Shown here: piece by piece, positions 7,660 to 60,393 of the stretch
Position numbering within the stretch: position 1 is the first letter of the stretch
How the letters are laid out: every line of letters begins with the position of its first letter
Source: an uncultured Candidatus Saccharibacteria bacterium
GTDB lineage: Bacteria; Patescibacteriota; Minisyncoccia; UBA6257; UBA11618
Length of the DNA: 62,611 nt
Reading direction: 5' to 3'
Assembly (NCBI GenBank): GCA_964362125.1
Contig: CAYICS010000004.1
Location: 1 to 62,611, forward strand
Position numbers and translations under genes: made by a program
Notes under the pieces: generated by a model
What the model was told of the DNA's origin: nothing
What the model saw: the letters and a program-made list of their open reading frames with translations, nothing else
Database searches by the model: none

Positions 7660-7737
7660 ACCCTAAACCCCCCGCCTGCAGACGCCTGGAGCGTCAGCGA
7701 CTGGCGGGCAGGTAAACCCTATACCCTATACCCTAAA
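7660..7737. repeat. (CCCTAAA/CCCTATA)n array interrupted by the 42-bp GC element (7671-7712)
   Basis: ACCCTAAACCC[42 bp]TAAACCCTATACCCTATACCCTAAA; the 42-mer recurs at 35359, 54149 and 55735. Confidence 0.85.
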
Positions 7738-23618: not shown

Positions 23619-23723
23619 ATGGAAAAGTTATTGGAACTTCAAGACATCCATGTTCACTACGGCGGCGTTCGGGCCTTAGACGGCGCCAGTGTTTATCTGG
23701 ACGAGGGCGAGGTGGTTTGTTAA
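23619..23723 (+). pseudogene. Truncated, synonymously diverged copy of the livF 5' end
   Basis: First 33 aa identical to LivF (25062), then C and stop. Confidence 0.85.
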
Positions 23724-24486: not shown

Positions 24487-24597
24487 CCGATTAAACTTCC
24501 CAGAAGCTGTCTCGGGCGCGGGTACAAACAACTCCAATCCTAGATTGGAGTTTTTCCTTTTTTGACACAAATCATCAATTTGATTAAAATTAAGAAT

Positions 24598-24792
24598 ATG
24601 ACCACCTCTACTATTTATAAAAAGTTAAAACCAGAACTGCGTCAGTTTATTGTTGAGACTATTCATCAAGTTCTTGATGATCCAGATTTTGGAATGGAAT
24701 TAAGCGAAAGAGCCAAGAAAAGACTGGAGCAAGCCCGGAAATCAAGAAAAAGAGGCATCCCTGCTTCAGAGATTAGAAGAAAATATTACTAG
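24598..24792 (+). CDS. Putative antitoxin
   Basis: DPDFGMELS...RL...GIPASEI; TTGACA-N17-TAAAAT promoter with an internal palindrome. Confidence 0.7.
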   Translation: MTTSTIYKKLKPELRQFIVETIHQVLDDPDFGMELSERAKKRLEQARKSRKRGIPASEIRRKYY

Positions 24793-24796
24793 TTTT

Positions 24797-25060
24797 ATGG
24801 CCTTCTGGAGATGGGATTTTGATCCTGACGGAGAAGAGGAATTTAAAGATATAGATCGTTCTGTGAGGCAGAGAATTATTAATAAGCTTGATTGGCTTGT
24901 TAAAAATTTCACATCAATTAAGCCATCATCTCTAACAGGCGAGTATAGCGATTTTTTCAAATTAAGAGTGGGTAAGTGGCGGATTTTCTATAAAGTTTAT
25001 TGGAAGGATAGTTTAATCAGGGTTTATTACATTGATAATCGCGATAAAGCTTATAAATAA
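24797..25060 (+). CDS. RelE/ParE-superfamily toxin
   Basis: LTGEYSDFFKLRVGKWRIFY...IDNRDKAY. Confidence 0.85.
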   Translation: MAFWRWDFDPDGEEEFKDIDRSVRQRIINKLDWLVKNFTSIKPSSLTGEYSDFFKLRVGKWRIFYKVYWKDSLIRVYYIDNRDKAYK

Positions 25061-25061
25061 A

Positions 25062-25775
25062 ATGGAGAAACTTTTAGAGCTTCAAGATATTCACGTTCAC
25101 TACGGCGGTGTTCGGGCTTTAGACGGCGCCAGTGTTTATTTAGATGAAGGTGAGGTGGTGGCCTTGATGGGGCCTAATGGCGCCGGCAAGTCCACCATCC
25201 TCAAGACAATCTTTGGCTTGGCGCCGATTCATTCGGGAAAGGTATTGTGGCATGGCAAGCCGATCAAGCCAGTGTCCCATGAGGTGGTGGCCCGCGGCAT
25301 TGCTTTTGTCCCTCAAGGCCGGCGCGTTTTCACCAGCTTGACTGTTGAAGAAAATTTGGAGATCGGCGGCTATACTGTGCCAGACAAAAAAGAAGTGCGG
25401 CGGCGCATTGAGGAAGTGATGGAGATTTTCTTAGCGCTCAAAGCCAAGCGCCACGCTAAATCTGGCACGCTCTCGGGCGGCCAGCAACAGCAATTGGCCA
25501 TTGCCCGCGGCCTGATGACTGATCCCAAAGTTCTCCTGTTAGACGAACCAACCCTTGGTCTTGCCCCGAAGATCATCAAAGAAGTTTTTGAGACCATTAA
25601 AGAAATTAACCAGCGGCATAAAACATCTATTATGGTAGTGGAGCATAACATTAAATCATTGCTTAATTTTGTTAATCGCGCCTATGTCCTCAACCGCGGC
25701 CAAGTGGCCACTGAAGGATCACCTAAAGAGATTTTGGAAAGCGACATTTTAGAAAAAGTCTTTTTAGGGCAATAG
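25062..25775 (+). CDS. livF: LIV ABC ATPase LivF
   Basis: GPNGAGKS, VPQGRRVF, LSGGQQQQLAIARGLM, LLDEPTLGLAP. Confidence 0.93.
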   Translation: MEKLLELQDIHVHYGGVRALDGASVYLDEGEVVALMGPNGAGKSTILKTIFGLAPIHSGKVLWHGKPIKPVSHEVVARGIAFVPQGRRVFTSLTVEENLEIGGYTVPDKKEVRRRIEEVMEIFLALKAKRHAKSGTLSGGQQQQLAIARGLMTDPKVLLLDEPTLGLAPKIIKEVFETIKEINQRHKTSIMVVEHNIKSLLNFVNRAYVLNRGQVATEGSPKEILESDILEKVFLGQ

Positions 25776-27403: not shown

Positions 27404-27407
27404 CAGA

Positions 27408-27508
27408 GTATCGATGCTAATATACGAATGAATGCGAATGATACGAATAGGAATACGGATTCGCAACCCCATTCGTAGATTCGCAAATTCGTAGATTCGC
27501 ATCGAAGC
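27408..27508. repeat. ~100-bp GTATCGATGC...GCATCGA palindromic element, copy 1
   Basis: ACGAAT/ATTCGT arrays; homologous copies at 42517, 47228, 49982, 51054, 58899. Confidence 0.9.
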
Positions 27509-27517
27509 CCAAAACCT

Positions 27518-29623
27518 ATGCCCCGTCAATATCCTATTGAAAAAGTTCGCGACATCGGCATCATTGCCCACATTGATGCTGGTAAAACCACAGTTACCGA
27601 GCGGGTGCTTTTTTACACCGGCGTTTCCCATAAAATTGGCGAAGTCCATGAAGGGACAACGGTGATGGATTGGATGGAGCAGGAAAGGGAGCGCGGCATC
27701 ACCATTACTGCTGCTGCCACAACGGCTTTCTGGATGCCGACTTACGCCAATGGTGATAAAGCTTTTGAGCATCAGATTAATATCATTGATACCCCGGGCC
27801 ACATTGATTTTACGGTTGAAGTAAAACGATCTTTACGCGTGCTGGATGGGGCGGTGGTTGTTTTTGATGGCGTCGCCGGTGTTGAACCCCAATCAGAAAC
27901 CAACTGGCATTATGCTGATGATTACAAAGTGCCGCGCATTTGTTTTATCAATAAACTCGACCGCACCGGCGCCAATTGGGAGAATAGTTTAAAGGCGATT
28001 CAAGAACGGCTTAATCCTCAGGCCGCGCCTATTCAAATTCCTATTGGTCTCGAATCCAATTTCGAGGGCGTGATTGATCTTTTGCGAATGAAAGCTTATT
28101 ACTTCGAGGGTGAAAAAGGCGAGCGGGTTGTGGAAAAAGAAATTCCGAAAAATCTTCTGGAGGAAGCCGAAAAGCGGCGGCGGCAGCTGGTGGAAAAAAT
28201 TGCCGAACAGGATGACGAGCTGCTTCATAAATTTTTAGAACATCAGGAGATTTCGCTGGAGGATTTAAAACGTGTCTTGCGCAAAGCCTGCATTGAAGTG
28301 AAATTAATTCCGGTGTTGACCGGCGCCGCCTTAAAAAACAAGGGAGTGCAGCTGGTTTTGGACGCGGTGGTTGATTATTTGCCGTCGCCGGTTGATTTGC
28401 CGTCCATCAAAGGTATTAATCTGAAAACCGACGCTGAAGAGATCCGTTTGGCGGCTGATGACCAGCCATTGGCGGCTTTGGCTTTTAAAATCGCCGCCGA
28501 CCCCTTTGTCGGTTCGTTGACTTTCTTCCGGGTTTATTCCGGCACTCTCAAGCGCAGCACCTATATTTTGAATTCTACCAAAAACTCACAAGAACGAGTG
28601 GGGCGGATTGTTCGTCTTCACGCCAATCACCGCGAGGAGGTGAATGAGATTTACGCCGGTGAAATCGGCGGCTTGGTGGGAATGAAAGATACCAGCACCG
28701 GCGACACTTTATCTGATCCCGATCATCCCATCTTGCTGGAGAAAATAATTTTCCCCGAGCCGGTGATCTCTATGCGTATTTCTCCCAACACCAAAGCCGA
28801 TCAGGAAAAAATGGGCATTGCCCTGCGCCGTTTGTCAGAGGAAGACCCGACTTTCCGGGTGAGCGGCGATCAGGAGACAGGCGAGACGATTATTTCCGGA
28901 ATGGGGGAGTTGCATTTGGAAATTATCGTGGACCGGATGAAGCGGGAGTTTACCGTTGAAGCTAAGACCGGCCGGCCGCAGGTGGCTTATAAAGAAACAG
29001 TGACGGCTCTGGCTGAAGCTGAAGGTAAATATATTCGCCAGACCGGCGGTCGGGGGCAATATGGTCATGTCTGGCTGAAAGTAGAGCCGCGGGAGCGGGG
29101 AGCGGGTTTTGAATTTGTTGATGCTATTAAAGGCGGCGCCATTCCTAAAGAATTTATTCCGGCAGTGGAGAAAGGCGTGAAGGAGGCGATTGATAAAGGT
29201 GTAGTGGCTCATTATCCGATGGTGGATTTGCAGGCAACTCTTTACGATGGTTCTTACCACGAAGTTGACTCTTCGGAGATTGCTTTTAAAATCGCCGGCT
29301 CGATGGCTTTTCAGGAAGCGGCTAAGCGGGCCCGGCCAGTGATGCTGGAACCAATTATGAAAATTCAGGTGATTATGCCCACGGAATTTTTGGGAGATGT
29401 AACCGGGGATTTGTCAGCCAAGCGCGCCAAAATTGAAGCGATGAACGATCGTTTTAACATCAAAATGATAGATGCTAAAGTGCCGCTGTCCGAGATGTTT
29501 GGCTATGCCACCTCATTGCGTTCCATGACTCAGGGCCGGGGCTCATTCACGATGGAGTTTTCTCACTACGAGGAAGTTCCGAACAATATCGCGCAGTTAA
29601 TAATTGAGGGGAAAAGGAAGTAA
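27518..29623 (+). CDS. fusA: Elongation factor G
   Basis: [26 protein letters not shown]; 701 aa. Confidence 0.99.
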
Positions 29624-29812: not shown

Positions 29813-30073
29813 ATGAGGGAGATTGAGAGAAGTTTGAAGGCCTTGGCCAATCGGCGGCGGTTGTCGATTGTTAAGTATTTGAAACAGAATAGAGAAGCGC
29901 CGGTGGCGGATGTTGCCGCAGCGATCAATCTTTCTTTCAAGGCGACCTCAAAGCATCTGGCTTTGCTTTCGGCGGCGGATATTGTTGATAAGGAACAGCG
30001 GAGTGTCCAGGTTTTCTATCGCTTGTCAGATAATTTAAGGTCGCCGGTTAAACATATAATTTCACTACTCTAA
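29813..30073 (+). CDS. ArsR/SmtB-family transcriptional regulator
   Basis: KALANRRRLSIV...wHTH SKHL..L...V.YRL. Confidence 0.9.
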   Translation: MREIERSLKALANRRRLSIVKYLKQNREAPVADVAAAINLSFKATSKHLALLSAADIVDKEQRSVQVFYRLSDNLRSPVKHIISLL

Positions 30074-30107: not shown

Positions 30108-30551
30108 ATGAAACCAGTTAATAACGAATATTGGCGTAAGAAATTAACCCCGGAGCAGTATCGAGTTCTGCGGGGAAAGGGGACGGAGCCGGCTTTTTCT
30201 GGAAAATATTATAAGACCAAAGACAAAGGTGTTTATAGATGCGTCGCCTGCGGGGCTGGATTGTTTTCTTCAGATGCCAAGTTTGATTCCGGCACCGGCT
30301 GGCCCAGTTTTACTGAATCGATGAACAGAGAAAATGTAGAATTGCGCCAAGACCAAAGTCAGGGAATGATTAGAACAGAGGTTTCGTGCAAAAACTGTGG
30401 CTCGCATTTGGGTCACGTCTTTGACGATGACCCCACTCCAACCGGTAAAAGATTTTGTATAAACTCCTGCGCGCTGGATTTTGGTAGAAATTCTTTTATA
30501 AAAGGATTGAATGATTGTAGCCAGTTGATTATTGAAGGAAAGAGAAAATGA
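30108..30551 (+). CDS. msrB: Peptide methionine sulfoxide reductase MsrB, with an EF-G-derived C-terminal tail
   Basis: [36 protein letters not shown]. Confidence 0.95.
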
Positions 30552-35320: not shown

Positions 35321-35445
35321 CGCGATTCGAAAAATCCCTGCCCGCCAGCGGCTTGAGCCCCGCCTGCAGACGCCTGGAGCATCAGCGACTGGCGGGCAGG
35401 CGCAGGCACTGGCAGGCGGGCGAATCCATCCGAATGATCCGAATA
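35321..35445. repeat. Nested repeat cluster containing the 42-bp GC element (35359-35400)
   Basis: 42-mer inside CCTGCCCGCCAG/CTGGCAGGCGGG, inside ATTCG/CGAAT arms. Confidence 0.8.
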
Positions 35446-35582
35446 AAATAATTTGGAATTTATAGTTTAGAGTTTTAATAGTGGGGGTGCCATTGTTTGA
35501 CTTTGAGAATTGTGCTAGTCTTCTTCTTGAAGTTCTTTTTACCGCATCTTTTTATTTTTGTCAAACGAAAGGAGAGTATGCC

Positions 35583-36848
35583 ATGCTGCAGTTTGAACGG
35601 ATTGATGGTCCCTATGGCATCCCGGTGTATTTTCAGCCGCTGCCGGAGACCATCGGACCGATTGGTCTCCGTTGGCTCGTCTTCGTGGGCAGCGCCGACG
35701 ACCCGAGCGTCGGACTTCCGGGTCTGTATCACTGGTTTGAGCACGTTCCTTTCCGCGGCACCGTCCGCTATCCAGGCGGGTATGCTGACACTATTGGGCG
35801 GTTCAGACGTTATGGGGGGTACTTGAATGCGCATACGAGCAAGACGCGAACGGCGTATTACGGCTTCGTCCCTCGGGCGCACTGGTGGGAAGCGCTGGAC
35901 GTTCTCACCGATCTTATCGCCCAGCCGCTCCTCACCGAGGACGGCATCAACAGTGAGCGTGAGATCATTCGCGATGAGCAGAACCGCGCCCGCTCGAAGC
36001 CGGACAAGTACTTTTGGCAGACGAAGGGAGAGCATCTTTTCTCTGGCCATCCATTAGCCCATCCAGTCCTCGGCACGGACGACACACTTACGCGCATGGG
36101 GACTGGACTCCTCCGGCAGGCGCACGGTTGCGGCTACAGCCGCAGCCGCTGCGTACTCCTCGTGTCCGGTGCTCTCGATCGTACAGAGCTGTTCGACGCG
36201 GTCGCGGAGCAGGCCGCGCGTATCCCCGAGCTCGTCGTCGCCGAGCGTCGGCTGCCGGCGTGCTATGCGCCGCTTCCACCGTGGCCGGCTGGCCGCACCT
36301 TCACGGTGGATACGCCATTCCCTTCTTCACTGGTGGCGCTCTTTTTCCCGGTGCCCGCGCGGCCGCCGAATATGTTTCACCGGGCGTGGGCTTTTCTCAA
36401 AGCACTCTTTGAAACGGGGGGACTAAATTCACCACTCCTCCGGATTCTCCGTGAGCAGCGGAATCTGGTCTATTCCGCGTGGGTGACCACCTCTTGGGAT
36501 CCCGATGGCGGTATCTGGGGTTTCCGAGCTGAGACTCGGCCGGAACACATTGATGCAGTTCTTCGAGGATTCTGGGATGTCCTCTGTGATGCTCATGTCC
36601 ACTCGCAGGATTGGGAGGACTACGTGCGTGACGCCATCCGGAGTCTGGCGCGCATGCGGGTGGCGCATCCGGATGACTCGACCAAAGACGGTGAGGACCG
36701 CTTGGTGGAGTACGGGCGCCCCATGAGCGACGTCGAGCTGGAGGCCGAACTGCTTTCTGTCACTCGGGAAGAAGTACTGTCCCTTCTCGACACACTGACG
36801 CCTGAGCGCGCCTGCATCCTCATCTACCGCGGCCTCGACAAGACGTAG
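35583..36848 (+). CDS. M16 (pitrilysin-family) zinc peptidase
   Basis: HWFEH inverted zincin motif, LNAHTS, REQRNLVYS; visibly more GC-rich than its neighbours. Confidence 0.9.
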   Translation: MLQFERIDGPYGIPVYFQPLPETIGPIGLRWLVFVGSADDPSVGLPGLYHWFEHVPFRGTVRYPGGYADTIGRFRRYGGYLNAHTSKTRTAYYGFVPRAHWWEALDVLTDLIAQPLLTEDGINSEREIIRDEQNRARSKPDKYFWQTKGEHLFSGHPLAHPVLGTDDTLTRMGTGLLRQAHGCGYSRSRCVLLVSGALDRTELFDAVAEQAARIPELVVAERRLPACYAPLPPWPAGRTFTVDTPFPSSLVALFFPVPARPPNMFHRAWAFLKALFETGGLNSPLLRILREQRNLVYSAWVTTSWDPDGGIWGFRAETRPEHIDAVLRGFWDVLCDAHVHSQDWEDYVRDAIRSLARMRVAHPDDSTKDGEDRLVEYGRPMSDVELEAELLSVTREEVLSLLDTLTPERACILIYRGLDKT

Positions 36849-38784: not shown

Positions 38785-38803
38785 GTCGTTTATAATTAAA
38801 CAG

Positions 38804-39031
38804 ATGATCCAAACTACCTCTACAACAATTAGACTTCCAAAAAAAGCAGCTAAAGGAGGCTGGGTTATTTTGAGTATTGATGAATACCGGCAAATTATGG
38901 AAAAAAATGTGCCGACTTATTATTTAACTGGGAAGAAAGCGAAGGAATTAGATCAGCTGGTAAAAGAAGGATTAAGAGCTTATAGACAGGGTAAGATTAA
39001 GAAGCTTGGGTCTCTAGCCGACCTTAGATGA
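38804..39031 (+). CDS. Putative antitoxin
   Basis: 75 aa, ATGA-coupled to a RelE-like gene. Confidence 0.65.
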   Translation: MIQTTSTTIRLPKKAAKGGWVILSIDEYRQIMEKNVPTYYLTGKKAKELDQLVKEGLRAYRQGKIKKLGSLADLR

Positions 39032-39288
39032 TTGAGATTTTTAGTACGCCCCGATTTGATAAGAATTACAAAAAATTACCAAAAGAAGTAAAGTTAAAGG
39101 CTGAGAAAAAAGAAGGATTTTTTAAGATTAATCCTTTCGATCTTCGACTTAACACCCACAGACTTCATGGAAAAGACAAAACAAACTGGGCTTATTGGGT
39201 AGACTATAAGTATCGAATAAAATTTATTTTTCTAAATGGGAGTAAGGTGCTTTATCTTGACGTCGGCACCCACGATGAGGTTTATTAA
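39028..39288 (+). CDS. RelE/YafQ-like toxin
   Basis: LNTHRLHG...WAYWVDYKYRI.F...DVGTHDEVY. Confidence 0.85.
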   Translation: MIEIFSTPRFDKNYKKLPKEVKLKAEKKEGFFKINPFDLRLNTHRLHGKDKTNWAYWVDYKYRIKFIFLNGSKVLYLDVGTHDEVY

Positions 39289-39332
39289 ATAATACTTGAC
39301 ACCCTAGGGGGGGATGTATATTCATAAGTATT

Positions 39333-40460
39333 ATGAACAAAACGCTTATTTGGGTCATCGTCATCGTGGTTATCGTGGTTGGCGGGTATTTTTTGATAAA
39401 TAAGCCGAAGCCTGAATCGGGTGAGCCGATAAAAATAGGCGGCGCCTTTACTCTTACTGGCATCGCCTCAACTTGGGGAGAGGCTGATAGAAATGCAGCC
39501 ACCTTAGCTATCGAGGAAATTAATAATGGTGGCGGTATCAATGGTAAGTCGGTGGAGTTAGTTGTGGAAAATACTTTTTCAGAGAATGCCAAAACATTAT
39601 CGGCTGTATCTAAATTAGTTGATATTAACGAAGTTATTGCTCTTATAGGGCCAACATGGCTTGATAGTTATCAAAGCGCCGTGCCCTTTGCGGAAGAGAG
39701 AAAAATAGTGATAGTCACTCCTAGCGCTGCCATCACCGCCATTCAAAATCCTAAGAAGTACGATTTTACCTTTTCTACTTGGTATCGCTCGGATGTTGAA
39801 TCAGAAGAGTTGGCTTCTTATTTAGCTAAGACAGGGAAGAAAAAAGTTGTGTTTATGGGGACTAAAGACCCATTTTGGGAGGACGTTTTTAATCATTTTG
39901 AGAAACGTGGCCAAGAGGTCGGGATTGTGGCGGCTGAGAAGTTTTTTGTTAACCCAGACCAATCCGATTTTAGAACTCTTATTACCCGCATTAAATTAAT
40001 TAATCCCGATGTTATATTGGTTGGATTTGCCACGGAGAATAGTTGGCTTGGGTTCTTAAAACAGCGACAAGAGATATATCCACAATCCACATTGTATTCA
40101 ACAGAATCGATTGAAGAATTTATCACCAAAGAAGGCTATGAAGGATTACTCGCCAATACTTTCTTTATTGCTCCAAAGGCCCTAGAGAATGATTTTCCAG
40201 ATCTTTATAAGAAGCGATTCAATGTCGATGCTGTATTTTCAGCTCCAAACGCTTATGATGCAACCAAAATGGTTCTAAAAGCTATAAGTGCTGTTGGTGT
40301 AGATTCAGAAAAAATCAGAGACTATCTAAAGAATAATGAATTTGAGACTGTTACTTTCGGTAAGGTCAGATTTGATGACCTTGGCGGTATTGGCGGTGGT
40401 GATTTTGTTATTAAAGCAGTTAAAGATCGGAAGGCGGAGATAGTTGAGGAGTTGAAATAA
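39333..40460 (+). CDS. LivJ/K-family substrate-binding protein, paralog 3 (orphan, inside the S10 operon)
   Basis: IKIGGAFTLTG, N-terminal TM anchor. Confidence 0.88.
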   Translation: MNKTLIWVIVIVVIVVGGYFLINKPKPESGEPIKIGGAFTLTGIASTWGEADRNAATLAIEEINNGGGINGKSVELVVENTFSENAKTLSAVSKLVDINEVIALIGPTWLDSYQSAVPFAEERKIVIVTPSAAITAIQNPKKYDFTFSTWYRSDVESEELASYLAKTGKKKVVFMGTKDPFWEDVFNHFEKRGQEVGIVAAEKFFVNPDQSDFRTLITRIKLINPDVILVGFATENSWLGFLKQRQEIYPQSTLYSTESIEEFITKEGYEGLLANTFFIAPKALENDFPDLYKKRFNVDAVFSAPNAYDATKMVLKAISAVGVDSEKIRDYLKNNEFETVTFGKVRFDDLGGIGGGDFVIKAVKDRKAEIVEELK

Positions 40461-40537
40461 ATAAAATTACGGCAAATCTTGCCAGAGTAGTTGAAAGGCG
40501 GCTTTAAAAGAAATCTTGATCGTGGTAAAATTGAATA

Positions 40538-41035
40538 ATGAGAAAGAATGAAAATAATTACGCCTTTATTGATAGTCAAAATTTAAATTTATCAATCCGT
40601 TCTCAGGGTTGGATTCTTGACTTTGCAAGGTTTCGCAGATACCTGAAAGATAAATATAAAGTCAATAAAGCTTTTTTATTTATCGGCTATGTTGGCACTA
40701 ACCAAAATTTATATACTTCTCTCCAAAAAGAAGGTTATATTTTAATCTTTAAACCAACTCTTATACTTCCTAATAAAAAAGTGAAAGGCAATGTTGATGC
40801 CGAATTGGTTTTGCATACGATGATCGAATATCCTAATTGTGACAAGGCCCTAATTATTACTGGCGATGGCGATTTTTATTGTTTGATTGATTATTTAATA
40901 GAGAGGAACAAGCTTTTGAAGTTAATGGTTCCTAATAGGTTTAAATTCTCCTCTTTATTAAGAAAATTTATGTCTGATATGGTTTTTATGAATAGTTTAA
41001 AAATAAAACTGGAATATAAAAACAAAAGAGATTAA
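40538..41035 (+). CDS. NYN (LabA/DUF88, PIN-fold) domain protein
   Basis: AFIDSQNL, KGNVDAELV, ITGDGDF. Confidence 0.9.
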   Translation: MRKNENNYAFIDSQNLNLSIRSQGWILDFARFRRYLKDKYKVNKAFLFIGYVGTNQNLYTSLQKEGYILIFKPTLILPNKKVKGNVDAELVLHTMIEYPNCDKALIITGDGDFYCLIDYLIERNKLLKLMVPNRFKFSSLLRKFMSDMVFMNSLKIKLEYKNKRD

Positions 41036-41090
41036 ATGAGGGGCATTGACCTTCGGACGAACCTTAGGTGTAGCCCCTCATCGTGATATT
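41036..41090 (+). ncRNA. Candidate structured RNA directly after the NYN stop codon
   Basis: 9-bp outer stem ATGAGGGGC/GCCCCTCAT, inner ACCT/AGGT, GGACGAACC loop, TCGTGAT tail. Confidence 0.35.
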
Positions 41091-41209
41091 CTAATACTAG
41101 CAGCCAACCCCCTCGCCTGTCAATAGTGATTTGTCCACAACAAAAACGGCAAGTTTGAGTTGGTAAAATAGAATTATGGTTATCGCAAGACCATAATTAT
41201 GGTAAAGTT

Positions 41210-41440
41210 TTATTTTCCTAAAAGTCTGATAAATTCTTTTACAGAAATTCCAGCTTGTTTTAATATGCCCATCATCAGTCCTCTTTTCATATTACCGGAA
41301 TGCATTGGTATACTTGTGAATTTTTTAGTAATCGGATGTTCAAGAAAATAATGACTGCCCTTTATTCTTAAAACTAAAAAGCCAGCCTTTTTCAAGATTC
41401 TTAACAGTTTTACTGCAGTAAGAATTGGAACTATACTCAT
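41210..41440 (-). CDS. hicA: HicA-family mRNA interferase
   Basis: GF..LRIKGSH, SIPMH, ILKQAGIS. Confidence 0.9.
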   Translation of the reverse strand: MSIVPILTAVKLLRILKKAGFLVLRIKGSHYFLEHPITKKFTSIPMHSGNMKRGLMMGILKQAGISVKEFIRLLGK

Positions 41441-41697
41441 GCCGCTACGTGTTCCGGAGTTCGTGTCGGACGGCGAGTTTTTCTATGAAGTTGTTTTTCA
41501 ACTAGACATTCAATACATAATTCCAGGCACTCTTTAGACATTTTTTTAGCCTGTTTCAGATTTTTACCCCAAGTGATCATCCCTTGGACTTCTGGAGCAG
41601 TAACGATAAAACCACCTTCTCCATCTGGCTTAAAAACGCAAATATGAGAACCATAATCAGTCTTGATTTTAATTTTTCTCTTTAATTTATTAGCCAT
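41437..41697 (-). CDS. hicB: HicB-family antitoxin (short, no HTH)
   Basis: GGFIVTAPEVQGMITWGKNL..A; upstream of hicA. Confidence 0.85.
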   Translation of the reverse strand: MANKLKRKIKIKTDYGSHICVFKPDGEGGFIVTAPEVQGMITWGKNLKQAKKMSKECLELCIECLVEKQLHRKTRRPTRTPEHVAA

Positions 41698-41825
41698 GTA
41701 TCTATTATAATGAAGACGACGGTCACTTATCAAGTGTTGCCGGTATTCTGCGCGATTTCAATAAAATTATGGTTATCGCAAAACCATAAATTCGAGTTAA
41801 GGATGGACTGTGATATAATGGCAGG

Positions 41826-42176
41826 GTGAAAATAGAGGTTATTCGTGATCGCGTAACAAGAGGAGAGTTAAAAAGAATTGCCGAAGCATGGAATCGCGAT
41901 TTAGTAAAGGCAGTAGTGGATATTGAAAAGGGGATTATGGCGATCGGCGGCGAGCTTCACGCTGATGAAGAAGTTTTTCTTACGGAGCAAGAAGGTTCAA
42001 AACGAGAACATACTTGGGGGATTAATTTGTATCCTGATGAATCGGGTGATAAATTTATACAATTTGATTCTATGATTAATCTCAAACCTCATCTTGACAA
42101 TCGTTCTCGGGGCGTCGAGAATCCGGAGATTCGTGAAAAAATTAAAGAAACAGTTAATAAACTCGTTCAAGAATAA
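41826..42176 (+). CDS. DUF5674-like protein
   Basis: LVKAVVDIEK...GGELHADEE...WGINLYP...FDSMINLKP. Confidence 0.75.
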   Translation: MKIEVIRDRVTRGELKRIAEAWNRDLVKAVVDIEKGIMAIGGELHADEEVFLTEQEGSKREHTWGINLYPDESGDKFIQFDSMINLKPHLDNRSRGVENPEIREKIKETVNKLVQE

Positions 42177-42508
42177 TGCGGGTTAGATTTCATAAAGAGT
42201 TGGCCGCCGGGAGATGGTTTCAACTATCACTGGAAGAGCAATTGGGTAATATTGGCAGTGAGGTTAGCCGGGCCCGGCATTGGCAGGGGAAGAATGAGAA
42301 ATATTTTTGGGAGGCGGTGGAGGCAGCTTTAGAACTTTTTGACTTAACTTTAGAAGATGAACGATGGCGGGGGCGGCGCTGGGAGATTGCCCGGGCGCGG
42401 GAGGTTTTTGTGGACGCTGTTTACGGCGGCAAAGAATACAACAGCTCATTGGAGGATTTGGATAAGTATTTTACAGATTTTGCTCTTGCCGCCCGCAGCC
42501 GGACTTGA
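42176..42508 (+). CDS. Conserved helical hypothetical protein coupled to DUF5674
   Basis: GRWFQLSLEEQLGNIGSEV...EIARAREV. Confidence 0.7.
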   Translation: MRVRFHKELAAGRWFQLSLEEQLGNIGSEVSRARHWQGKNEKYFWEAVEAALELFDLTLEDERWRGRRWEIARAREVFVDAVYGGKEYNSSLEDLDKYFTDFALAARSRT

Positions 42509-42516
42509 TTTTAAGT

Positions 42517-42601
42517 GTATTGATGCTAATATACGAATTGCGATTCGTAACCCCATTCGTATCATTCGTATATTCGTATATTAGTATATTCGCATCGATA
42601 C
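42517..42601. repeat. GTATCGATGC palindromic element, copy 2
   Basis: GTATTGATGC...GCATCGATAC ends, directly before rplW. Confidence 0.88.
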
Positions 42602-42608
42602 TTAACTT

Positions 42609-42890
42609 ATGATTAATAAGTTTATTGTTAAAAATCCTCTAATCACTGAAAAAGCCACGGCTGAAGGGCCGCTGGGCAAGTATACTTTTTTGGTGGAGAA
42701 AAAAGCCAACAAGCCCGAGGTGAAAAAAGCGGTGGAGGCGATTTATAAGGTGAAGGTGACTCAAGTCAATATCGTTAATGCCAGACCCAAGAGCCGCCGT
42801 CTTGGCCGCACTACCGGCGTCAAACCCGGCTACAAAAAAGCCATCGTCACTCTGGCGGCTGGACAGAAGTTAGATATTTTGCCGCAATAG
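42609..42890 (+). CDS. rplW: 50S ribosomal protein L23
   Basis: PLITEKA, YTFLV...ANKPEVKKAVE, KKAIVTL. Confidence 0.98.
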   Translation: MINKFIVKNPLITEKATAEGPLGKYTFLVEKKANKPEVKKAVEAIYKVKVTQVNIVNARPKSRRLGRTTGVKPGYKKAIVTLAAGQKLDILPQ

Positions 42891-42905
42891 TTCCATAATT
42901 AAATA

Positions 42906-44102
42906 GTGGGAAGATTTGTTGCTTTATTTATTTTGATAGTGGGTAGTTTACTTGTATTTTCTTTTGGACAATCTCTTGATCATTTAACCGCACAGATTAA
43001 AGTGGGTTTCATTCAAAGTCAGCAGGAGAAAGATAAAACCCAAGGAGAAATAGACAGATTAGTCGAAAAAATTAAAAGGAAGGCGGCCGAATTAAAAGAA
43101 GATGGCGAGAAGGACATTGCGGCAAAGTTAGAAGAATTAGCCAGCCGCATTAAGAGATCCCCGAGAGAGATTAATAAAAATTTTATAGTTATTTTTACTT
43201 GGTCACCACGATTTTTTGGTGAAGGAAATGAGATGGACGAATTTGCGGGGAGGCTACTTGGGATTTTACAAGAAGAGTTACAGAAGTGCATAGATGATTT
43301 CAAGTGCTCCTCCAAACCAAAAACTGTTTCGGTCATAGTATCACCTACAAGAAAGGAATTTGAGGAATTAATAAGTGAGCTCGGCGAGGAGTTAGGTTTC
43401 GGCGCAGTTTTCATTCCACAACTAAATATTATTCTTATTTCAGCAGAAATTTTCTCTTTAAATGATATTCAACACGAGATTGGACACGTGGTAGTAGAAG
43501 CGGAAAAAGCATTGATTAGTGAGAAACCTTTTAGGCACTGGTTATTAGAGGAGGGCTTGGCGATATCGAGAGAAAAACAAGAATTATCTTCTAGGATCCT
43601 TCAATCACTTTATGTTCATACTTTAGTAGATACAGAGAAATTTACTCCGGAGGATCTTTTACTAATAAACCGAAGACCTAATTTTAAAAAGGAGCAAGAG
43701 CAGCTCGCGAGCGATATTTATGCCCAAGGCGGAGCCATAACCAAGTTCTTTTTAGAAAAAGGCTTAACAGCCAAAGATTTATTGACGCTTGGCGAAAAGC
43801 TGGGCCGGGCTAAGACTGTGAAAGAGGTAAGGAAAATTTTACGTGATTTCTTAACAGAGAAGGGGATTAGTTACGATAGATTATATAAAGAATGGCTAGA
43901 GTGGCAGAGAGAAAAGGCCAAGGATATGGATAAGGAATGGCGCGAGTTCAGAAAAAAAGAACTAGAGACTTTAAAGAAATATCGAGAAGATGCTCGTAAG
44001 GCTGGCCTTTTAGATAATCCAGAAGCGAAGGCAATAATAGAAGCAGAGATTAGAAAAGTAGAGGAGGCGATAGGTAAGATTGATAAAATAGTAGCTGAAT
44101 AA
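42906..44102 (+). CDS. Secreted helical protein with a gluzincin-like motif
   Basis: Signal/TM, QHEIGH...LLEEGLA, coiled coils. Confidence 0.65.
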   Translation: MGRFVALFILIVGSLLVFSFGQSLDHLTAQIKVGFIQSQQEKDKTQGEIDRLVEKIKRKAAELKEDGEKDIAAKLEELASRIKRSPREINKNFIVIFTWSPRFFGEGNEMDEFAGRLLGILQEELQKCIDDFKCSSKPKTVSVIVSPTRKEFEELISELGEELGFGAVFIPQLNIILISAEIFSLNDIQHEIGHVVVEAEKALISEKPFRHWLLEEGLAISREKQELSSRILQSLYVHTLVDTEKFTPEDLLLINRRPNFKKEQEQLASDIYAQGGAITKFFLEKGLTAKDLLTLGEKLGRAKTVKEVRKILRDFLTEKGISYDRLYKEWLEWQREKAKDMDKEWREFRKKELETLKKYREDARKAGLLDNPEAKAIIEAEIRKVEEAIGKIDKIVAE

Positions 44103-44115
44103 AAAAGAAAGCCAA

Positions 44116-44337
44116 TCATTGGCTTTCCACCTCCTCCTTGATTTGGTCTAGTGGCTTCAGTCGAGGGGTGTGAAGAACGGGTACGTAGATACATCCTATA
44201 AGCCTGTCGTCATGTCTTACTGTTAGTATGGTGTTTGTTTTCTCCTCTCGAATAAACATCAAGGACAGAGTAGCGGCTGCCACTATCAGCAGAAGCAGTC
44301 GAAAAAACCAGTTTACATTCATTCTAGGTCCTCGCAC
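44116..44337 (-). CDS. Small hypothetical membrane protein
   Basis: 73-aa ORF with a hydrophobic N-terminus. Confidence 0.35.
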   Translation of the reverse strand: MRGPRMNVNWFFRLLLLIVAAATLSLMFIREEKTNTILTVRHDDRLIGCIYVPVLHTPRLKPLDQIKEEVESQ

Positions 44338-44411
44338 CAGGTTGTTATGTGTGGGAACTAATCAAAGTCTAGAACAAAAAAATTCTATTTGTCAATGGCT
44401 ATTGATGGCAC

Positions 44412-44481
44412 CAAATCCGGCTACAAAAAAGCCATTGTCACTCTGGCGGCTGGACAGAAGTTAGACATCTTGCCCCAATAA
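44412..44481 (+). pseudogene. Diverged duplicate of the last 70 bp of rplW
   Basis: 64/70 identical to 42821-42890. Confidence 0.9.
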
Positions 44482-44492
44482 AAAAACCGGCG

Positions 44493-44699
44493 TCACGGGG
44501 CTGACGCCGGCGACCGAGAGACTTTAGCTAATTGTTTGTTAGCTGACTCTTCTTTTTCGATAAGAGTCAGGCGGCAGCTGTTGGGGTAGACATTGTCAGC
44601 CTTGAGCCACTTGCCTTGGTAGTGGAACTCAACCTCGCCGCCATCGCTGACATAAGTGGCCACCACCGGCCCCCGGCCGTTTTCTTCCTGAAACATCAA
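44493..44699 (-). CDS. Small hypothetical protein
   Basis: 68-aa ORF divergent from the rplB promoter. Confidence 0.35.
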   Translation of the reverse strand: MMFQEENGRGPVVATYVSDGGEVEFHYQGKWLKADNVYPNSCRLTLIEKEESANKQLAKVSRSPASAP

Positions 44700-44783: not shown

Positions 44784-44819
44784 TTATTCTGCCTAGAAGG
44801 GGCGCGTCTTTAATTTAAT

Positions 44820-45656
44820 ATGGCAATAAAGATTACAAAACCAACCAGCGCTGGGCGGCGGCAGATGACTTTTGTTGATTATTCAACCATCACCGCCAAA
44901 GAGCCGTATAAGCCGCTGACCAGAAAATTGAAAACACACGCGGGCCGCAACACCCGCGGTGTTATTACCGTCCGCCATCAGGGCGGCGGCAATAAAAAAA
45001 TTTATCGGATTATTGATTTTAAACAGGATAGATTTAATATCACAAGTCGAGTCGAGACCATTGAATATGATCCTTACCGGACTGCTTTCATCGCGCTGGT
45101 TGTTTATAGGGACGGCCAGCGCCGTTATATTTTAGCTCCAGTTGGTTTAAAAGTGGGTGATGAAATTGTCACTGCCGAAAATCCCCCCCTGAAGTTCGGC
45201 AACCGCCTGCCGCTGAAAAATATCCCGGTTGGTTATCAAGTCCATAATATTGAGATGCAGAGAGGCGCCGGCGGAAAATTAATCCGCAGTGCTGGCGGCT
45301 ATGCTGAGATTTTGGCTAATGCTGATGGCTACACCGATATCAAGATGCCATCAAAAGAAATTCGTCGTGTCCGCTGGGATGGCTTGGCCACTATTGGTCA
45401 AATTTCCAATCCTGATTGGAATTTGGTTAATATCGGTAAGGCCGGCCGCAGTCGCTGGTTGGGAATCAGACCGACAGTGCGGGGCACGGCAATGAATCCC
45501 CGAGAGCACCCGCGCGGTGGTGGTGAAGGCAGACAACCTCGCGGCACCCGCCGGCCCAAAGATATCTGGGGGAATATTATTGGCGGCCATAAGACCCGGA
45601 AGAAAAAGAAATGGTCTAATATCTTAATAATTCAACGCCGTCCCAAAAAACGATGA
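44820..45656 (+). CDS. rplB: 50S ribosomal protein L2
   Basis: [30 protein letters not shown]. Confidence 0.99.
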
Positions 45657-47222: not shown

Positions 47223-47227
47223 ATTTG

Positions 47228-47327
47228 GTATCGATGCTAATATACGAATGATACTAATTATACTAATACCGATTATGATTCGTAACCCATTCGTATCATT
47301 AGTAAATTAGTATATTGGCATCGAAGC
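47228..47327. repeat. GTATCGATGC palindromic element, copy 3
   Basis: Near-exact reverse complement of 49982-50081. Confidence 0.9.
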
Positions 47328-47338
47328 TCATAGCTCAT

Positions 47339-49981: not shown

Positions 49982-50081
49982 GTATCGATACCAATATACT
50001 AATTTACGAATGATACGAATGGGTTACGAATCACAATCGGTATTAGTATAATTAGTATCATTCGTATATTAGCATCGATAC
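49982..50081. repeat. GTATCGATGC palindromic element, copy 4 (inverted)
   Basis: Reverse complement of copy 3 with few mismatches. Confidence 0.9.
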
Positions 50082-50093
50082 CCAATAACTTTA

Positions 50094-50499: not shown

Positions 50500-51054
50500 A
50501 TGAGTAAACTAGGCAGAAAACCAATTGCTATTCCCAGTGACATAGAGGCCCGGCTGGCGGACGGCATTTTTTATTTTAAGGGCAAGGCCGGGCAGACCGA
50601 ACTGAAAGTCCTGCCTTATCTTGAAGCCAAACTTCAGGATCAAGAGATTACTGTTAAGCCGGTTAATAATATCCGGCAGGCTCGGGCTAATTGGGGGACG
50701 ATGGTTTCTTTAATAAAAAATGCCATTGCCGGTGTTAGTGAGGGTTTTAGCAAAGAACTGCAAATCGAAGGCATTGGTTATCGGGCTAGTATTGAAGGGG
50801 ACAAGTTAAATCTCAGCATCGGCTTCAGTCATCCGGTAAAATATCAGCCGCCAACGGGCGTGAAAATCAGTGTTGAGAAAAACATCATCAAGATTTCGGG
50901 AATTGATAAGCAGTTAGTGGGATTGGCGGCTTCGCAGATCCGTAAATTGAAGAAACCCGAACCTTATCAGGGCAAGGGGATCAGATATGTGGGCGAGGTC
51001 ATCAGGAGAAAGGCCGGGAAAAAAGCAGCGGCAGCGGCAGGCGCAGCCGCCTAG
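50500..51054 (+). CDS. rplF: 50S ribosomal protein L6
   Basis: SKLGRKPI, GIGYRA, PEPYQGKGIRY. Confidence 0.98.
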   Translation: MSKLGRKPIAIPSDIEARLADGIFYFKGKAGQTELKVLPYLEAKLQDQEITVKPVNNIRQARANWGTMVSLIKNAIAGVSEGFSKELQIEGIGYRASIEGDKLNLSIGFSHPVKYQPPTGVKISVEKNIIKISGIDKQLVGLAASQIRKLKKPEPYQGKGIRYVGEVIRRKAGKKAAAAAGAAA

Positions 51055-51159
51055 TATCGATGCTAATATACGAATGAATGCGAATGATGCGAATAAGCTC
51101 ACGAATGATTCGTAAACCCCATTCGTATCATTCGTAAATTCGTAGATTCGCATCGAAGC
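51054..51159. repeat. GTATCGATGC palindromic element, copy 5
   Basis: Begins on the G of the rplF TAG stop. Confidence 0.9.
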
Positions 51160-51176
51160 CTAAATCAAATCCTAAT

Positions 51177-54140: not shown

Positions 54141-54240
54141 ATTATTCGCCCGCCTGCAGACGCCTGGAGCGTCAGCGACTGGCGGGCAGGCAGATTAGGA
54201 TCGGGTTCAATTTTTTGTTGTTTTGTGTTATAATTTTAAA

Positions 54241-54828
54241 ATGTCAAATTTTGCTGGAAAAACTTTTATTTTTCTGGGGATTTCTGGTTCGGGTAAGGGG
54301 ATCCAGACTGAGCTTTTGGAAAAATGGCTGACTGGTCAGGGTTATTCATTGCTGCGGGTAGTATTGGGCGATAAAGGCAGGCAATTAGCAGAGAAAGATT
54401 CTCTCTTGGGTCGCTGGGTCAATGGTATTTTGAAACGGGGAGGTTTCTTTCCCAGCTGGCTGGTTTTTAATTTACTGCTCAACACCATTGATGAAGAATT
54501 AATCAGCCCGGAGCAAATTTTAATCATTGACGGCGGCTCGCGGCGCCTGCCCGAGGCGAAAATGATTGATGAATTATTGCAGGAATTGGGAAGGTCTCCC
54601 GCCCAGCCCATTTATCTTGAAGTTTCTGAAGATGAGGCACGTCAGCGGCTGACCAAAAGAGGCCGCGATGACGATCAGAGTCCGGCGGCGGTCAATAGTC
54701 GTTTCGACTGGTTTAAAAAAGAGACTTTGTTAGTGCTTGATTATTATGGCAACCGATTGATAAAAATTAACGGCCAACAATCAATTGAAGCAGTTCATGA
54801 TGCAGTTAAAAAAGCCATCGGAAATTGA
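54241..54828 (+). CDS. adk: Adenylate kinase (short form, LID reduced)
   Basis: GISGSGKG P-loop, IDGGSRR..EA, RGRDDD; follows secY. Confidence 0.85.
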   Translation: MSNFAGKTFIFLGISGSGKGIQTELLEKWLTGQGYSLLRVVLGDKGRQLAEKDSLLGRWVNGILKRGGFFPSWLVFNLLLNTIDEELISPEQILIIDGGSRRLPEAKMIDELLQELGRSPAQPIYLEVSEDEARQRLTKRGRDDDQSPAAVNSRFDWFKKETLLVLDYYGNRLIKINGQQSIEAVHDAVKKAIGN

Positions 54829-55649: not shown

Positions 55650-56003
55650 ATGAAGAGGTTGTTGATGTTAGCCAGTCTGGTGGTGCTGGGGATGGCCGGC
55701 GGCGTGCGCGCCGGGGATGAGCCCCTTCTCCAGGCCCGCCTGCAGACGCCTGGAGCGTCAGCGATTGGCGGGCAGGCCCGGGCCTGGGCTGAGGAACAGC
55801 CGGCGGCAGTGAGCTGTTGTCCGCTCTGCGGCGCAGTTCATACCACCGGTCGGCTTCTCTGCGCCAGTGTCACCACTGTCGGTGACGCCGCTGTCTCGAC
55901 CGTGAGGTTCACGGTTAAGGCCAGCAAGCGCTTTGGCCAACAGACTGCTGGGGGCGTCAGCGCCTTCTGGCGGCGCACCAAGGCGCGCTTCTCCTGTAGG
56001 TAG
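55650..56003 (+). CDS. Hypothetical secreted protein carrying an in-frame 42-bp repeat (55735-55776)
   Basis: AGGAG RBS, signal peptide ending VRA, CPLC motif. Confidence 0.5.
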   Translation: MKRLLMLASLVVLGMAGGVRAGDEPLLQARLQTPGASAIGGQARAWAEEQPAAVSCCPLCGAVHTTGRLLCASVTTVGDAAVSTVRFTVKASKRFGQQTAGGVSAFWRRTKARFSCR

Positions 56004-58892: not shown

Positions 58893-58898
58893 CACTCA

Positions 58899-59003
58899 GT
58901 ATCGATGCTAATATACGAATGAATGCGAATGATACGAATAAGCACACGAATCGATTGGCAACCCTATTCGTAGATTCGCAAATTCGTAGATTCGCATCAA
59001 AGC
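58899..59003. repeat. GTATCGATGC palindromic element, copy 6
   Basis: First 41 nt identical to copy 1; fills the gatC-gatA spacer. Confidence 0.9.
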
Positions 59004-59007
59004 TTAT

Positions 59008-60393
59008 ATGCATCTCCACGATCTCACAATTAAAAAAGTCCATGACGATCTGACTAGCAAGAAATATTCAGCTTTGGAGCTGGTGAAAAATTTTTATAAA
59101 TGGATCGAAACCAAAGATAAAGAAATTGGCGCTTACCTGTATTTAGGCAAAGACGATGCTTATCTTCAGGCGGAGAAAGTGGATATTGCTCTGGCTAAAG
59201 GCGAGGCCATTGGTGAATTGGCCGGCGTGCCGCTGGCGATTAAAGACAATATTTTAATTGCCGGCCAGCTGGCCACTGCCGCCTCAAGAATTTTAGAAAA
59301 TTATATGGCAATTTACGACGCCACTGTCATTAGAAAACTGCGTAAAGCTCAGGCGGTATTTTTAGGTAAAACCAATCTCGATGAGTTTGCCATGGGATCA
59401 TCCACAGAAAATTCCGGCTTCCAGATTACTCACAATCCTCATGATTTAGATAAAGTCCCGGGTGGTTCTTCCGGCGGCTCGGCGGCGGCTGTGGCGGCTC
59501 ATATGGCTGTAGCCGCTTTGGGCTCGGATACCGGCGGCTCTATTCGTCAGCCGGCAGATTTTTGTCAAATAGTGGGACTGAAGCCAACTTACGGCGCTGT
59601 CTCTCGTTATGGGTTGATGGCTATGGCTTCCAGTCTTGATCAGATCGGTCCTCTTACCAAAACTGTTGAGGACGCCGCTATTTTATTTGAGGCCATCGCC
59701 GGCCAGGATTCTTTTGATGCCACTTCCGCTGATGTAACTTACGGGCCGGAGTTGGGCCAGCCCAAATTAGAAAGAATTAGAGAAATGACCATCGGCCTGC
59801 CTAAAGAATATTTCATTACCGGTCTTGATAAACAGATTGAAGAAAAAATTCAACAGGTTATCACTCAATTAAAGACGCTTAAAATCAAATTTAAAGAAAT
59901 CTCCCTGCCTCACACCCAATACGCTCTTTCCTGCTACTATATAATTATGCCAGCCGAGGTTAGCGCTAATTTAGCCCGCTACGATGGCGTTCGCTATTCC
60001 CGCGGCCGCAGTAAAGGAGATTTTGGGGCGGAGGTGAAGCGGCGGGTGATTCTGGGCACTTTTGTTCTTTCTTCCGGCTACTACGATGCTTACTACGCCA
60101 AAGCCCAAAAAGTCCGGGCGCTGATCAAAAAAGATTTTGATGAGGTCTTTAAAAAAGTGGATGTCATTTTAGCGCCGGTTTCGCCCACCCCGCCCTTTAA
60201 GATCGGGGAGAGGATGGCCGATCCCTTACAGATGTATCTTTCTGATATTTTTACCATCCCCGCTAATCTGGCTGGCCTGCCGGCGATTACCATTCCTCCC
60301 GGCTTTCAGTTAATCGGCAAGCCTTGGCGCGAATCCGATATTTTAGGTATTGGTCAATTCTATGAACGAATTAGCAATCAGTCTCACAGCTGA
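59008..60393 (+). CDS. gatA: Asp/Glu-tRNA amidotransferase subunit A
   Basis: KTNLDEFAMGSSTE, PGGSSGGSAAAV, GSDTGGSIRQPA. Confidence 0.98.
   Translation: MHLHDLTIKKVHDDLTSKKYSALELVKNFYKWIETKDKEIGAYLYLGKDDAYLQAEKVDIALAKGEAIGELAGVPLAIKDNILIAGQLATAASRILENYMAIYDATVIRKLRKAQAVFLGKTNLDEFAMGSSTENSGFQITHNPHDLDKVPGGSSGGSAAAVAAHMAVAALGSDTGGSIRQPADFCQIVGLKPTYGAVSRYGLMAMASSLDQIGPLTKTVEDAAILFEAIAGQDSFDATSADVTYGPELGQPKLERIREMTIGLPKEYFITGLDKQIEEKIQQVITQLKTLKIKFKEISLPHTQYALSCYYIIMPAEVSANLARYDGVRYSRGRSKGDFGAEVKRRVILGTFVLSSGYYDAYYAKAQKVRALIKKDFDEVFKKVDVILAPVSPTPPFKIGERMADPLQMYLSDIFTIPANLAGLPAITIPPGFQLIGKPWRESDILGIGQFYERISNQSHS

Follow-up and report, generated by a model that had tools for sequence, protein, structure and literature searches.

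The object of this study is the gap between rplW and rplB, the genes of ribosomal proteins L23 and L2, in a 62,611-nt stretch of DNA (contig CAYICS010000004.1 of assembly GCA_964362125.1), which we analysed as a whole and refer to as the window. It comes from a 618-kb metagenome-assembled genome of the candidate phyla radiation (CPR, Patescibacteria) with a G+C content of 46%, obtained from the Hainich groundwater well H51. In the window, rplW is intact and is followed by 1.5 kb of cargo consisting of two convergent genes. Behind the cargo lies a second copy of the rplW tail, comprising the last 24 codons and a stop codon, and rplB stands only after that (Table 1). We call the functional tail of rplW copy A and the displaced duplicate copy B; the latter starts 1.59 kb downstream of copy A.

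The two copies agree at 67 of 75 bases, stop codon included (42816-42890 against 44407-44481), and encode the same residue at 22 of 24 positions. The initial annotation of this DNA had given a 64/70 match with five silent differences out of six for a slightly shorter pair (42821-42890 against 44412-44481), and recomputation returned the same figures. One of the silent differences lies in the stop codon (TAG against TAA), and the one non-silent difference within these limits changes a proline to a serine (CCC to TCC). The 5 nt further 5' in the repeat add two differences, which together replace a valine with a threonine. Self-BLAST of the window recovered the pair as a 69-nt match with 92.8% identity (E = 6e-22), and a tblastn search with residues 70-93 of L23 found copy B at 92% identity (E = 6e-10). 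The longest exact run common to both copies is 29 nt. No L23 homology was detected 5' of position 44407, and copy B is thus a stub out of context. Under random substitution, at least five silent differences out of six had a p value of 0.005 in the 66 nt that follow the fuzzy 5' edge of the repeat, and the value rose to 0.02 once this edge was counted.

Three further contigs bear on the structure. Both copies and the cargo lie together on L021, a contig of an independent assembly from the same site, and the cargo and copy B on L025 and L026; all three are 99.96-100% identical to the window. Their agreement shows that the arrangement did not arise as an assembly error in a single data set.

The first cargo gene starts 15 nt past the rplW stop codon and encodes a protein of 398 aa, ORF398, with an HExxH motif. 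The conserved residues are H190, E191, H194 and E216, the last of which lies 22 residues beyond the motif. The AlphaFold model of ORF398 (pLDDT 85.6) gave weak structural matches, the best of which were the peptidase domains of M9 collagenase and M1 aminopeptidase (E = 3e-4, TM 0.40). An exhaustive search of 1.84 billion representative proteins returned only 8 relatives, and a word-index search returned none. From the motif and the predicted fold, ORF398 is read as a putative membrane-anchored metallopeptidase of the gluzincin type, belonging to a rare family. The second cargo gene, on the opposite strand, encodes a small single-pass membrane protein; the cargo ends on the right with a promoter-like site for this gene, at a distance of 12 nt from copy B. 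The initial annotation had described a secreted HExxH protein and a small open reading frame (ORF) with no integrase between the repeats. Both ORFs were confirmed; neither matched any Pfam family, and no integrase or transposase domain was found in them.

A convergent ORF also lies 3' of the HExxH gene in all five contig contexts with gene calls (the window, L032/33, L035/36, L038 and L039). Four of the five are complete and have an N-terminal hydrophobic stretch, and the one in L038 is a 30-aa fragment at a contig end. The C-terminal 20 aa of cargo gene 2 are 55% identical to those of the partner in L032 (E = 2e-4), the only partner with detectable similarity. A 16-nt indel variant of the cargo was seen in one contig (L042) at 1x coverage and is uninformative.

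Empty sites in relatives and distribution of the cargo family

In 18 of 19 family and order relatives, rplB begins at most 40 nt past rplW. The closest L23 genes are found in L027/L028 (91% identical) and L029 (89%), which belong to other species and are not strains of the same one; their rplW-rplB gaps measure 98 nt and 96 nt, respectively, and contain neither cargo nor stub. The short gap in the relatives identifies the 1.5 kb as an insertion, in line with the earlier proposal that the cargo was inserted beside a diverged duplicate of the rplW tail. The homologous rplW tail is single-copy in L027, L029 and L030, and homology of the window with L027 and L029 resumes only at 44807-44813. The stretch between copy B and rplB that holds a terminator and a 68-aa ORF (44486-44699) is absent from the relatives and appears to be a separate insertion.

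The cargo family is rare and patchy, being present in 3 of 301 genomes of the order. The eight relatives of ORF398 lie at seven other places (L032/33, L035/36, L038, L039, G003 C6, G001 C13 and G003 C1), and the five with placeable flanks (L032/33, L038, L039, G003 C6 and G001 C13) are all at sites other than rplW. The initial annotation had raised the prospect of the same cargo elsewhere, together with an integrase and an rplW attachment site; at these seven places, no integrase was called or detected beside the cargo-gene relatives. One relative sits between an ABC gene and an M50 protease gene, and in L033 the initial 99 nt of the M50 gene occur twice, on either side of the peptidase module (407-508 and 2189-2290). 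In this pair, 11 of the 12 differences fall within the first 33 nt and are followed by 62 identical bases; the genus-typical N-terminus is kept by the stub, while the working gene has a foreign one. Another relative, in G003, lies between parA and parB, where no stub was found, and a third lies between two genes that are adjacent in contig 13 of the present genome. Cargo at rplW was found elsewhere only in a contig from the same well, L041. Exact-pattern scans of JGI metagenomes for the copy-B-type tail and for the junction of copy A with the cargo gave zero matches, as did a scan of GTDB genomes for the copy-B tail.

A second background for copy A and the cargo

L041 is a contig of 758 nt with 2x coverage from another sample of the same well. 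It matches the window without a mismatch over 542 nt (42794-43335), which comprise the last 97 nt of rplW with the TAG stop codon, the spacer of 15 nt and 430 nt from the start of the peptidase gene. Immediately upstream, 26 of 111 bases are mismatched (42683-42793, 77% identity), and further 5' the identity falls to approximately 35%. L041 also differs from the window in the end of rplD and, strongly, in the 5' part of rplW, and its rplD-rplW junction is canonical. By this comparison, a recombination breakpoint lies inside rplW, at 42793/42794, and is shared with the cargo in a second background, so that homologous exchange does take place at this point of the gene. In a third sample, the contigs of two assemblers (L025 and L026) both begin at exactly 42794, which is expected where two backgrounds converge in an assembly graph. 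A chance coverage gap was considered as the cause of these contig starts and was dropped, since L041 shows 42793 to be the last mismatch. The position of the breakpoint, 22 nt beyond the repeat, is evidence against a fixed site-specific core. In addition, the rplW alleles of relatives are mosaic as well.

Displaced gene ends in the whole genome

We scanned the genome for genes whose last nine codons and stop codon are repeated on the same strand within 6 kb downstream. The scan returned eleven pairs at ten loci, namely rplW, fusA, a SecA-like gene and seven others, while reversed and shuffled decoys gave none. Approximately 1.5% of all genes in the genome carry such a scar. The cargoes of the sister cases are accessory genes (ArsR with MsrB, Fic/Doc, AbiEii, NeuB and ParE), and the str/S10 region is interrupted at fusA, rpsJ, rplD and rplW.

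The initial annotation had recognised the same signature at fusA, and the stub there proved to be real. The fusA tail ends in QLIIEGKRK and a stop codon at 29594-29623, and the same nine codons and stop recur at 30522-30551. The two differ at 8 of 30 bases, all of them silent (simulated p = 5e-6), and the fusA tail of a relative is closer to the stub than to the intact tail. No run of identical bases in the fusA stub exceeds 5 nt, which is evidence against a crossover inside the fusA repeat. Sliding identity of fusA against L032 gave no clear step, and no breakpoint was located inside the gene.

Mirror-image stubs of gene starts also occur in the genome, the clearest of them at an ABC ATPase gene. 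Here codons 1-32 are repeated as a 5' stub 1.4 kb upstream of the intact gene, which starts at 25062; the stub matches 25062-25157. The two sequences differ at 16 of 96 bases, again all silent, an outcome seen in none of 50,000 rounds of random substitution. An unknown 219-aa ORF and a ParE toxin with its likely antitoxin (24562-25060) lie between the stub and the intact gene. This stub was found by nucleotide BLAST, so that no selection bias by codon position enters the count. The coding-constrained divergence of the ABC and fusA stubs argues that these sequences diverged inside working genes of another lineage and did not arise by local decay. A minimum of divergence in the middle of the repeat, assessed by a-priori thirds, was not significant for rplW (p = 0.18) or ABC (p = 0.14); it was significant only for the M50 stub of L033 (p = 0.005), and we do not rely on it.

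The surroundings of the fusA stub deserve a description of their own. The methionine sulfoxide reductase gene msrB (30108-30551), which is imported, ends in frame with the borrowed fusA tail, that is, with its nine codons and stop codon, and a gene for an ArsR-type regulator lies upstream of it (29813-30073). In L032, the position of this ArsR-MsrB cargo directly after fusA is occupied by a transposase gene of the IS200/IS605 Y1 type with flanking hairpins (5640-6430), and three diverged homologs of this transposase are found on other contigs of the present genome.

Origin of the insertion

The genome encodes a single tyrosine recombinase, on another contig (C8:18195-18677), which is presumably Xer, and no serine recombinase scored above the cut-off in the whole genome. 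Genes for ComEC, DprA and RecA are present, and natural transformation has been demonstrated in Patescibacteria (PMC10633639). The cargo ends lack inverted repeats, and the duplication measures 75 nt at rplW and 27-99 nt at the other stubs, a combination that does not fit the pattern of a transposon or an insertion sequence. Involvement of an IS200/IS605 element was considered in view of the Y1 transposase after fusA in L032 and its homologs in this genome, but it was rejected since the cargo ends have no subterminal hairpins. A GIY-YIG mini-element was set aside as well, the cargo having no nuclease gene.

The explanation that we favour, with a probability of roughly 60%, is that homologous recombination of the host in the conserved rplW tail imported a foreign tail together with the cargo and displaced the resident tail. 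The donor segment would have come from another CPR lineage and would have carried the last 75-100 nt or so of rplW with the two-gene module behind it; natural transformation is the likely route of entry. On the left side, recombination would have taken place in the highly conserved 3' part of rplW, leaving an intact gene that ends in the imported tail, copy A. On the right side, the incoming DNA would have been joined to the resident rplW approximately 70 nt before its stop codon, either by illegitimate recombination of the homology-facilitated kind (HFIR) or through one crossover with a circular intermediate, of which this join would be the second product. The resident tail, which copy B probably represents, would have escaped replacement and come to lie 1.59 kb further downstream as a dead stub. 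No recombinase encoded by the element would be needed in such a process, in which the conserved gene tail serves as the address. A 9-mer, CCGGCGTCA, stands at the exact left edge of copy A (42814-42822) and recurs at 44488-44496 in the 5' arm of the terminator hairpin that directly follows copy B; one of the joins may have used it as a microhomology, or its recurrence may be due to chance (approximately 0.02 expected).

Several observations weigh against import through the conserved tail. The silent-site argument for rplW, taken alone, is of moderate strength. Copy B has five states that are absent from the relatives, three of them non-synonymous, while copy A has one, and the non-synonymous changes of copy B cluster at its 5' edge, next to the cargo; private changes that fall mostly in copy B would also fit a local duplication followed by decay of this copy. 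A simple one-sided replacement does not yield the 62 identical bases at the M50 stub of L033, so that at least some of the events require either one crossover with a circle or gene conversion at a later time. At 2x coverage, L041 may be a chimeric assembly joined within the conserved tail, but even then a second allele equals copy A over at least one k-mer length, beside a stretch with 23% divergence. The recombination event behind the breakpoint at 42794 may also differ from the one that produced the stub. Finally, no same-species strain with an empty site was found, and no donor genome with sequence beyond the right edge of the cargo (44406); such genomes would show directly which copy is resident and how the right-hand join was made.

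A true long target duplication would account for some of these observations. Under this explanation, the cargo was taken up at a break, staggered or resected, close to the rplW end, and repair synthesis copied about 75 nt of the resident tail on either side of it, after which copy B decayed and copy A changed silently. The uneven distribution of private changes between the copies and the identical bases of the L033 M50 pair agree with it, and in the published insertions with long target duplication (ILTD) both repeats are close to the empty target (PMC2853133). We nevertheless consider it unlikely, given that the differences in the rplW repeat beyond its fuzzy edge are so predominantly silent, that the divergence of the ABC and fusA stubs (16/16 and 8/8 silent) is not that of local decay, and that copy A occurs with the cargo in a second background marked by the rplW breakpoint. 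Moreover, no mechanism that makes duplications of 30-100 nt is known. A decayed integrative element, in which a tyrosine or serine integrase recombined an attP containing the rplW tail with attB and was later lost or acted in trans, is more improbable still. Islands that carry an integrase classically leave direct repeats through which the target gene regains its 3' end, and repeat copies that differ are what an element from another host would bring. However, neither the cargo nor its surroundings contain an integrase, and the cargo relatives at other sites have none detected beside them; one Xer-like recombinase would have to serve at least 11 stub-flanked inserts at unrelated sequences; most of the inserts, at 0.66-1.6 kb, are too small for an integrase plus cargo; and the breakpoint of L041 is located outside the repeat rather than at a fixed core within it.

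That the rplW alleles of two strains were stitched into one contig has to be weighed as well, since the population behind this metagenome-assembled genome is mixed and contains a second rplW allele. Such an artefact is highly improbable, given the independent contigs described above, the absence of any exact run longer than 29 nt common to the copies, and a right cargo edge that shares no sequence with rplW from which a false join could arise. A more far-reaching form of import, which we regard as speculative and rather doubtful, is that a conserved gene end with its cargo constitutes a self-perpetuating cassette without a recombinase, which loops out when its two flanking copies recombine, moves from one CPR lineage to another as free DNA imported by the competence machinery, and re-enters at the orthologous gene through a RecA-mediated single crossover; the gene tail would thus be a portable address label. 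Such a cycle would fit the occurrence of tail and cargo in two backgrounds and the central identical stretch of the L033 M50 pair. It would also fit the restriction of the non-synonymous changes of copy B to the cargo edge, a part that would never be renewed from the functional gene. If it is true, the cycle would also explain how the ILTD footprint, known for 25 years, comes about.

Relation to published footprints

The rplW scar matches the footprint that has been published as ILTD, and it resembles 3'-end displacement. In ILTD, a small block of genes that includes no mobility gene lies between direct repeats exceeding 30 bp, which in many cases extend across a stop or start codon; such insertions occur mostly in naturally competent species, and how they arise was left unexplained (Furuta, Abe & Kobayashi 2010, NAR 38:2428, PMC2853133). 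The origin of the concept is credited in that paper to Nobusato et al. 2000 (Gene 259:99). Thus, the reading offered in the initial annotation holds, while the novelty it implied does not, since the footprint was already described. The insertion at rplW shares with ILTD an insert below 20 kb (here 1.5 kb) without a mobility gene, an empty site in related genomes, a flanking direct repeat longer than 30 bp (here 75 nt) that is single-copy at the empty site, and an intact neighbouring gene. The published cargoes are restriction-modification genes, whereas the cargo here is a peptidase gene with a small membrane protein gene; restriction-modification content was, however, a feature of the search criteria of the published survey and not of the footprint. 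Its authors suspected DNA cutting by the cargo itself, while the sister cargoes in the present genome include toxin-antitoxin genes, MsrB and NeuB. The sister repeat copies here differ only silently, which suggests that they are two alleles and not a single target that was duplicated. In addition, the scars are very dense (at least 11 loci in 618 kb), and several of them lie in essential translation genes.

Displacement of 3' ends has been described for rhs loci (Jackson et al. 2009, PMC2935791) and for the orphan immunity arrays of type VI secretion systems (T6SS; Kirchberger et al. 2017, PMC5361080), with a circular intermediate and single crossover proposed as the route for rhs (PMC2935791) and HFIR as an alternative (PMC5361080). 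There, too, an incoming conserved piece recombines with its resident counterpart and brings new downstream DNA, the old 3' end is shunted away as an orphan and no recombinase is involved. In those systems, the tip that is moved away is a toxin domain of another kind, accompanied by its immunity gene, and displacement alters the protein. The displaced tail of rplW, in contrast, belongs to a housekeeping gene and encodes nearly the same residues, so the novelty resides in the unrelated cargo behind it. HFIR was defined in PMC3240628, and its operation in natural transformation was reported by de Vries & Wackernagel 2002, Prudhomme et al. 2002 and Meier & Wackernagel 2003, as cited in PMC5361080. 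Like the process favoured here, it uses a one-sided homologous anchor to bring in adjacent foreign DNA and needs host recombination and DNA uptake, the genes for which are encoded in this genome. Laboratory cases of HFIR usually replace or delete the recipient DNA between the joins, whereas at rplW the second join would fall inside the anchor gene, so that a duplicate of the tail remains. Integrase-borne islands and cis-mobilizable elements likewise leave an intact gene and an insert framed by direct repeats of the target 3' end, but here there is no integrase, and many unrelated targets stand against a single Xer-like recombinase.

New in the present case are the density of scars in one minimal genome and their presence in essential translation genes. 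The silent-only divergence and the second background are also new, and both bear on the mechanism, for silent-only divergence of the stubs points to two alleles and so provides evidence on the unexplained mechanism of ILTD.

Implications for CPR genomes

Ribosomal protein operons are held to be the part of bacterial genomes that is most stable and most strictly inherited by vertical descent, and they form the backbone of the phylogeny of uncultivated lineages. Here, rplW is a recombinant mosaic, which means that single ribosomal protein genes can be chimeric in these lineages and calls for caution in phylogenetic use. The scars show gain of accessory genes in minimal genomes without the machinery of mobile elements, and this gain probably proceeds by competence and homologous recombination anchored in conserved gene ends. 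Stubs are a practical marker in metagenome-assembled genomes, since every one of them attests to an import and frequently also shows which way it went.

Other features of the ribosomal region

The coordinates of the features discussed above and of two repeat families of the window are collected in Table 1.

Table 1. Positions of the rplW insertion, the sister stubs and the repeat elements in the window
Feature	Position	Strand	Basis or remark
Intact rplW (ribosomal protein L23, 93 aa)	42609..42890	+	ORF list; full-length Pfam PF00276 Ribosomal_L23, E = 3.6e-30
Last 97 nt of rplW, identical in L041	42794..42890	+	breakpoint at 42793/42794
Copy A, functional rplW tail, stop TAG	42816..42890	+	repeat comparison, self-BLAST
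Cargo gene 1, putative 398-aa HExxH metallopeptidase gene (ORF398)	42906..44102	+	HEIGH 190-194, N-terminal membrane anchor
Hairpin terminator common to both convergent cargo genes	44106..44128	-	terminator scan: 10-pair stem and T run
Cargo gene 2, small single-pass membrane protein, 73 aa (68 aa from inner ATG)	44116..44337	-	ORF list; L026 gene call
Promoter-like site for cargo gene 2, TTGACA-18-TAGACT	44366..44395	-	consensus scan, 10/12; pattern match only
Copy B, displaced rplW tail stub, last 24 codons and TAA	44407..44481	+	no L23 upstream
Terminator (44486-44511) and 68-aa ORF (44493-44699) between copy B and rplB	44486..44699	-	ORF list, terminator scan
rplB (L2)	44820..45656	+	Pfam; synteny in 18/19 family and order relatives
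Displaced fusA tail stub, QLIIEGKRK and stop	30522..30551	+	now C-terminus of msrB ORF
5' stub of ABC ATPase gene, codons 1-32	23619..23714	+	mirror-image case; nucleotide BLAST
Palindromic element copies	27407-27513, 42520-42602, 47223-47332, 49985-50086, 51053-51165, 58898-59009		
GC-rich hairpin element copies	7668-7719, 35356-35407, 54146-54197, 55732-55783		

Upstream of rplW, the gap between rplD and rplW extends over 3.8 kb (38785-42608) and contains genes for a periplasmic binding protein, a protein with an NYN nuclease domain, HicA/HicB, a DUF5674 protein and a 110-aa ORF. In L027, only the binding protein and the 110-aa ORF are present in this gap, and in L029 none of these genes is; these contents indicate that the layers between rplD and rplW were added stepwise. 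Between rpsJ and rplC, an M16 peptidase gene (35481-36848) with a G+C content of 57-65%, against 46% for the genome, lies together with a GNAT acetyltransferase gene. This stretch is probably another foreign insertion in the ribosomal operon.

The position of rplW itself varies among relatives. In the closest species-representative genome (L040; G001:C1:111000-121000, reverse strand), the S10 order is rplD-rplB-rpsS-rplW-rplV, in which rplW no longer occupies the near-universal position between rplD and rplB. In L030 (1384-2398), where L23 is 85% identical, rplW is followed by repeat elements and a homolog of the gene at 54223-54828 of the window, and the operon is broken.

Two families of repeat elements were noted in the window. 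Palindromic elements of approximately 100 nt, built of ATTCGTA-like units, lie directly upstream of the start codons of fusA, rplW, rplP, rpsH and other genes, so that both genes of the window with a tail stub, rplW and fusA, have one immediately before them. The copies before rplW and fusA are missing in L027 and L032, which indicates that the element is mobile. The second family is a GC-rich hairpin element of 42-52 nt, whose four copies show 83-100% identity and are found at gene junctions and within ORFs.

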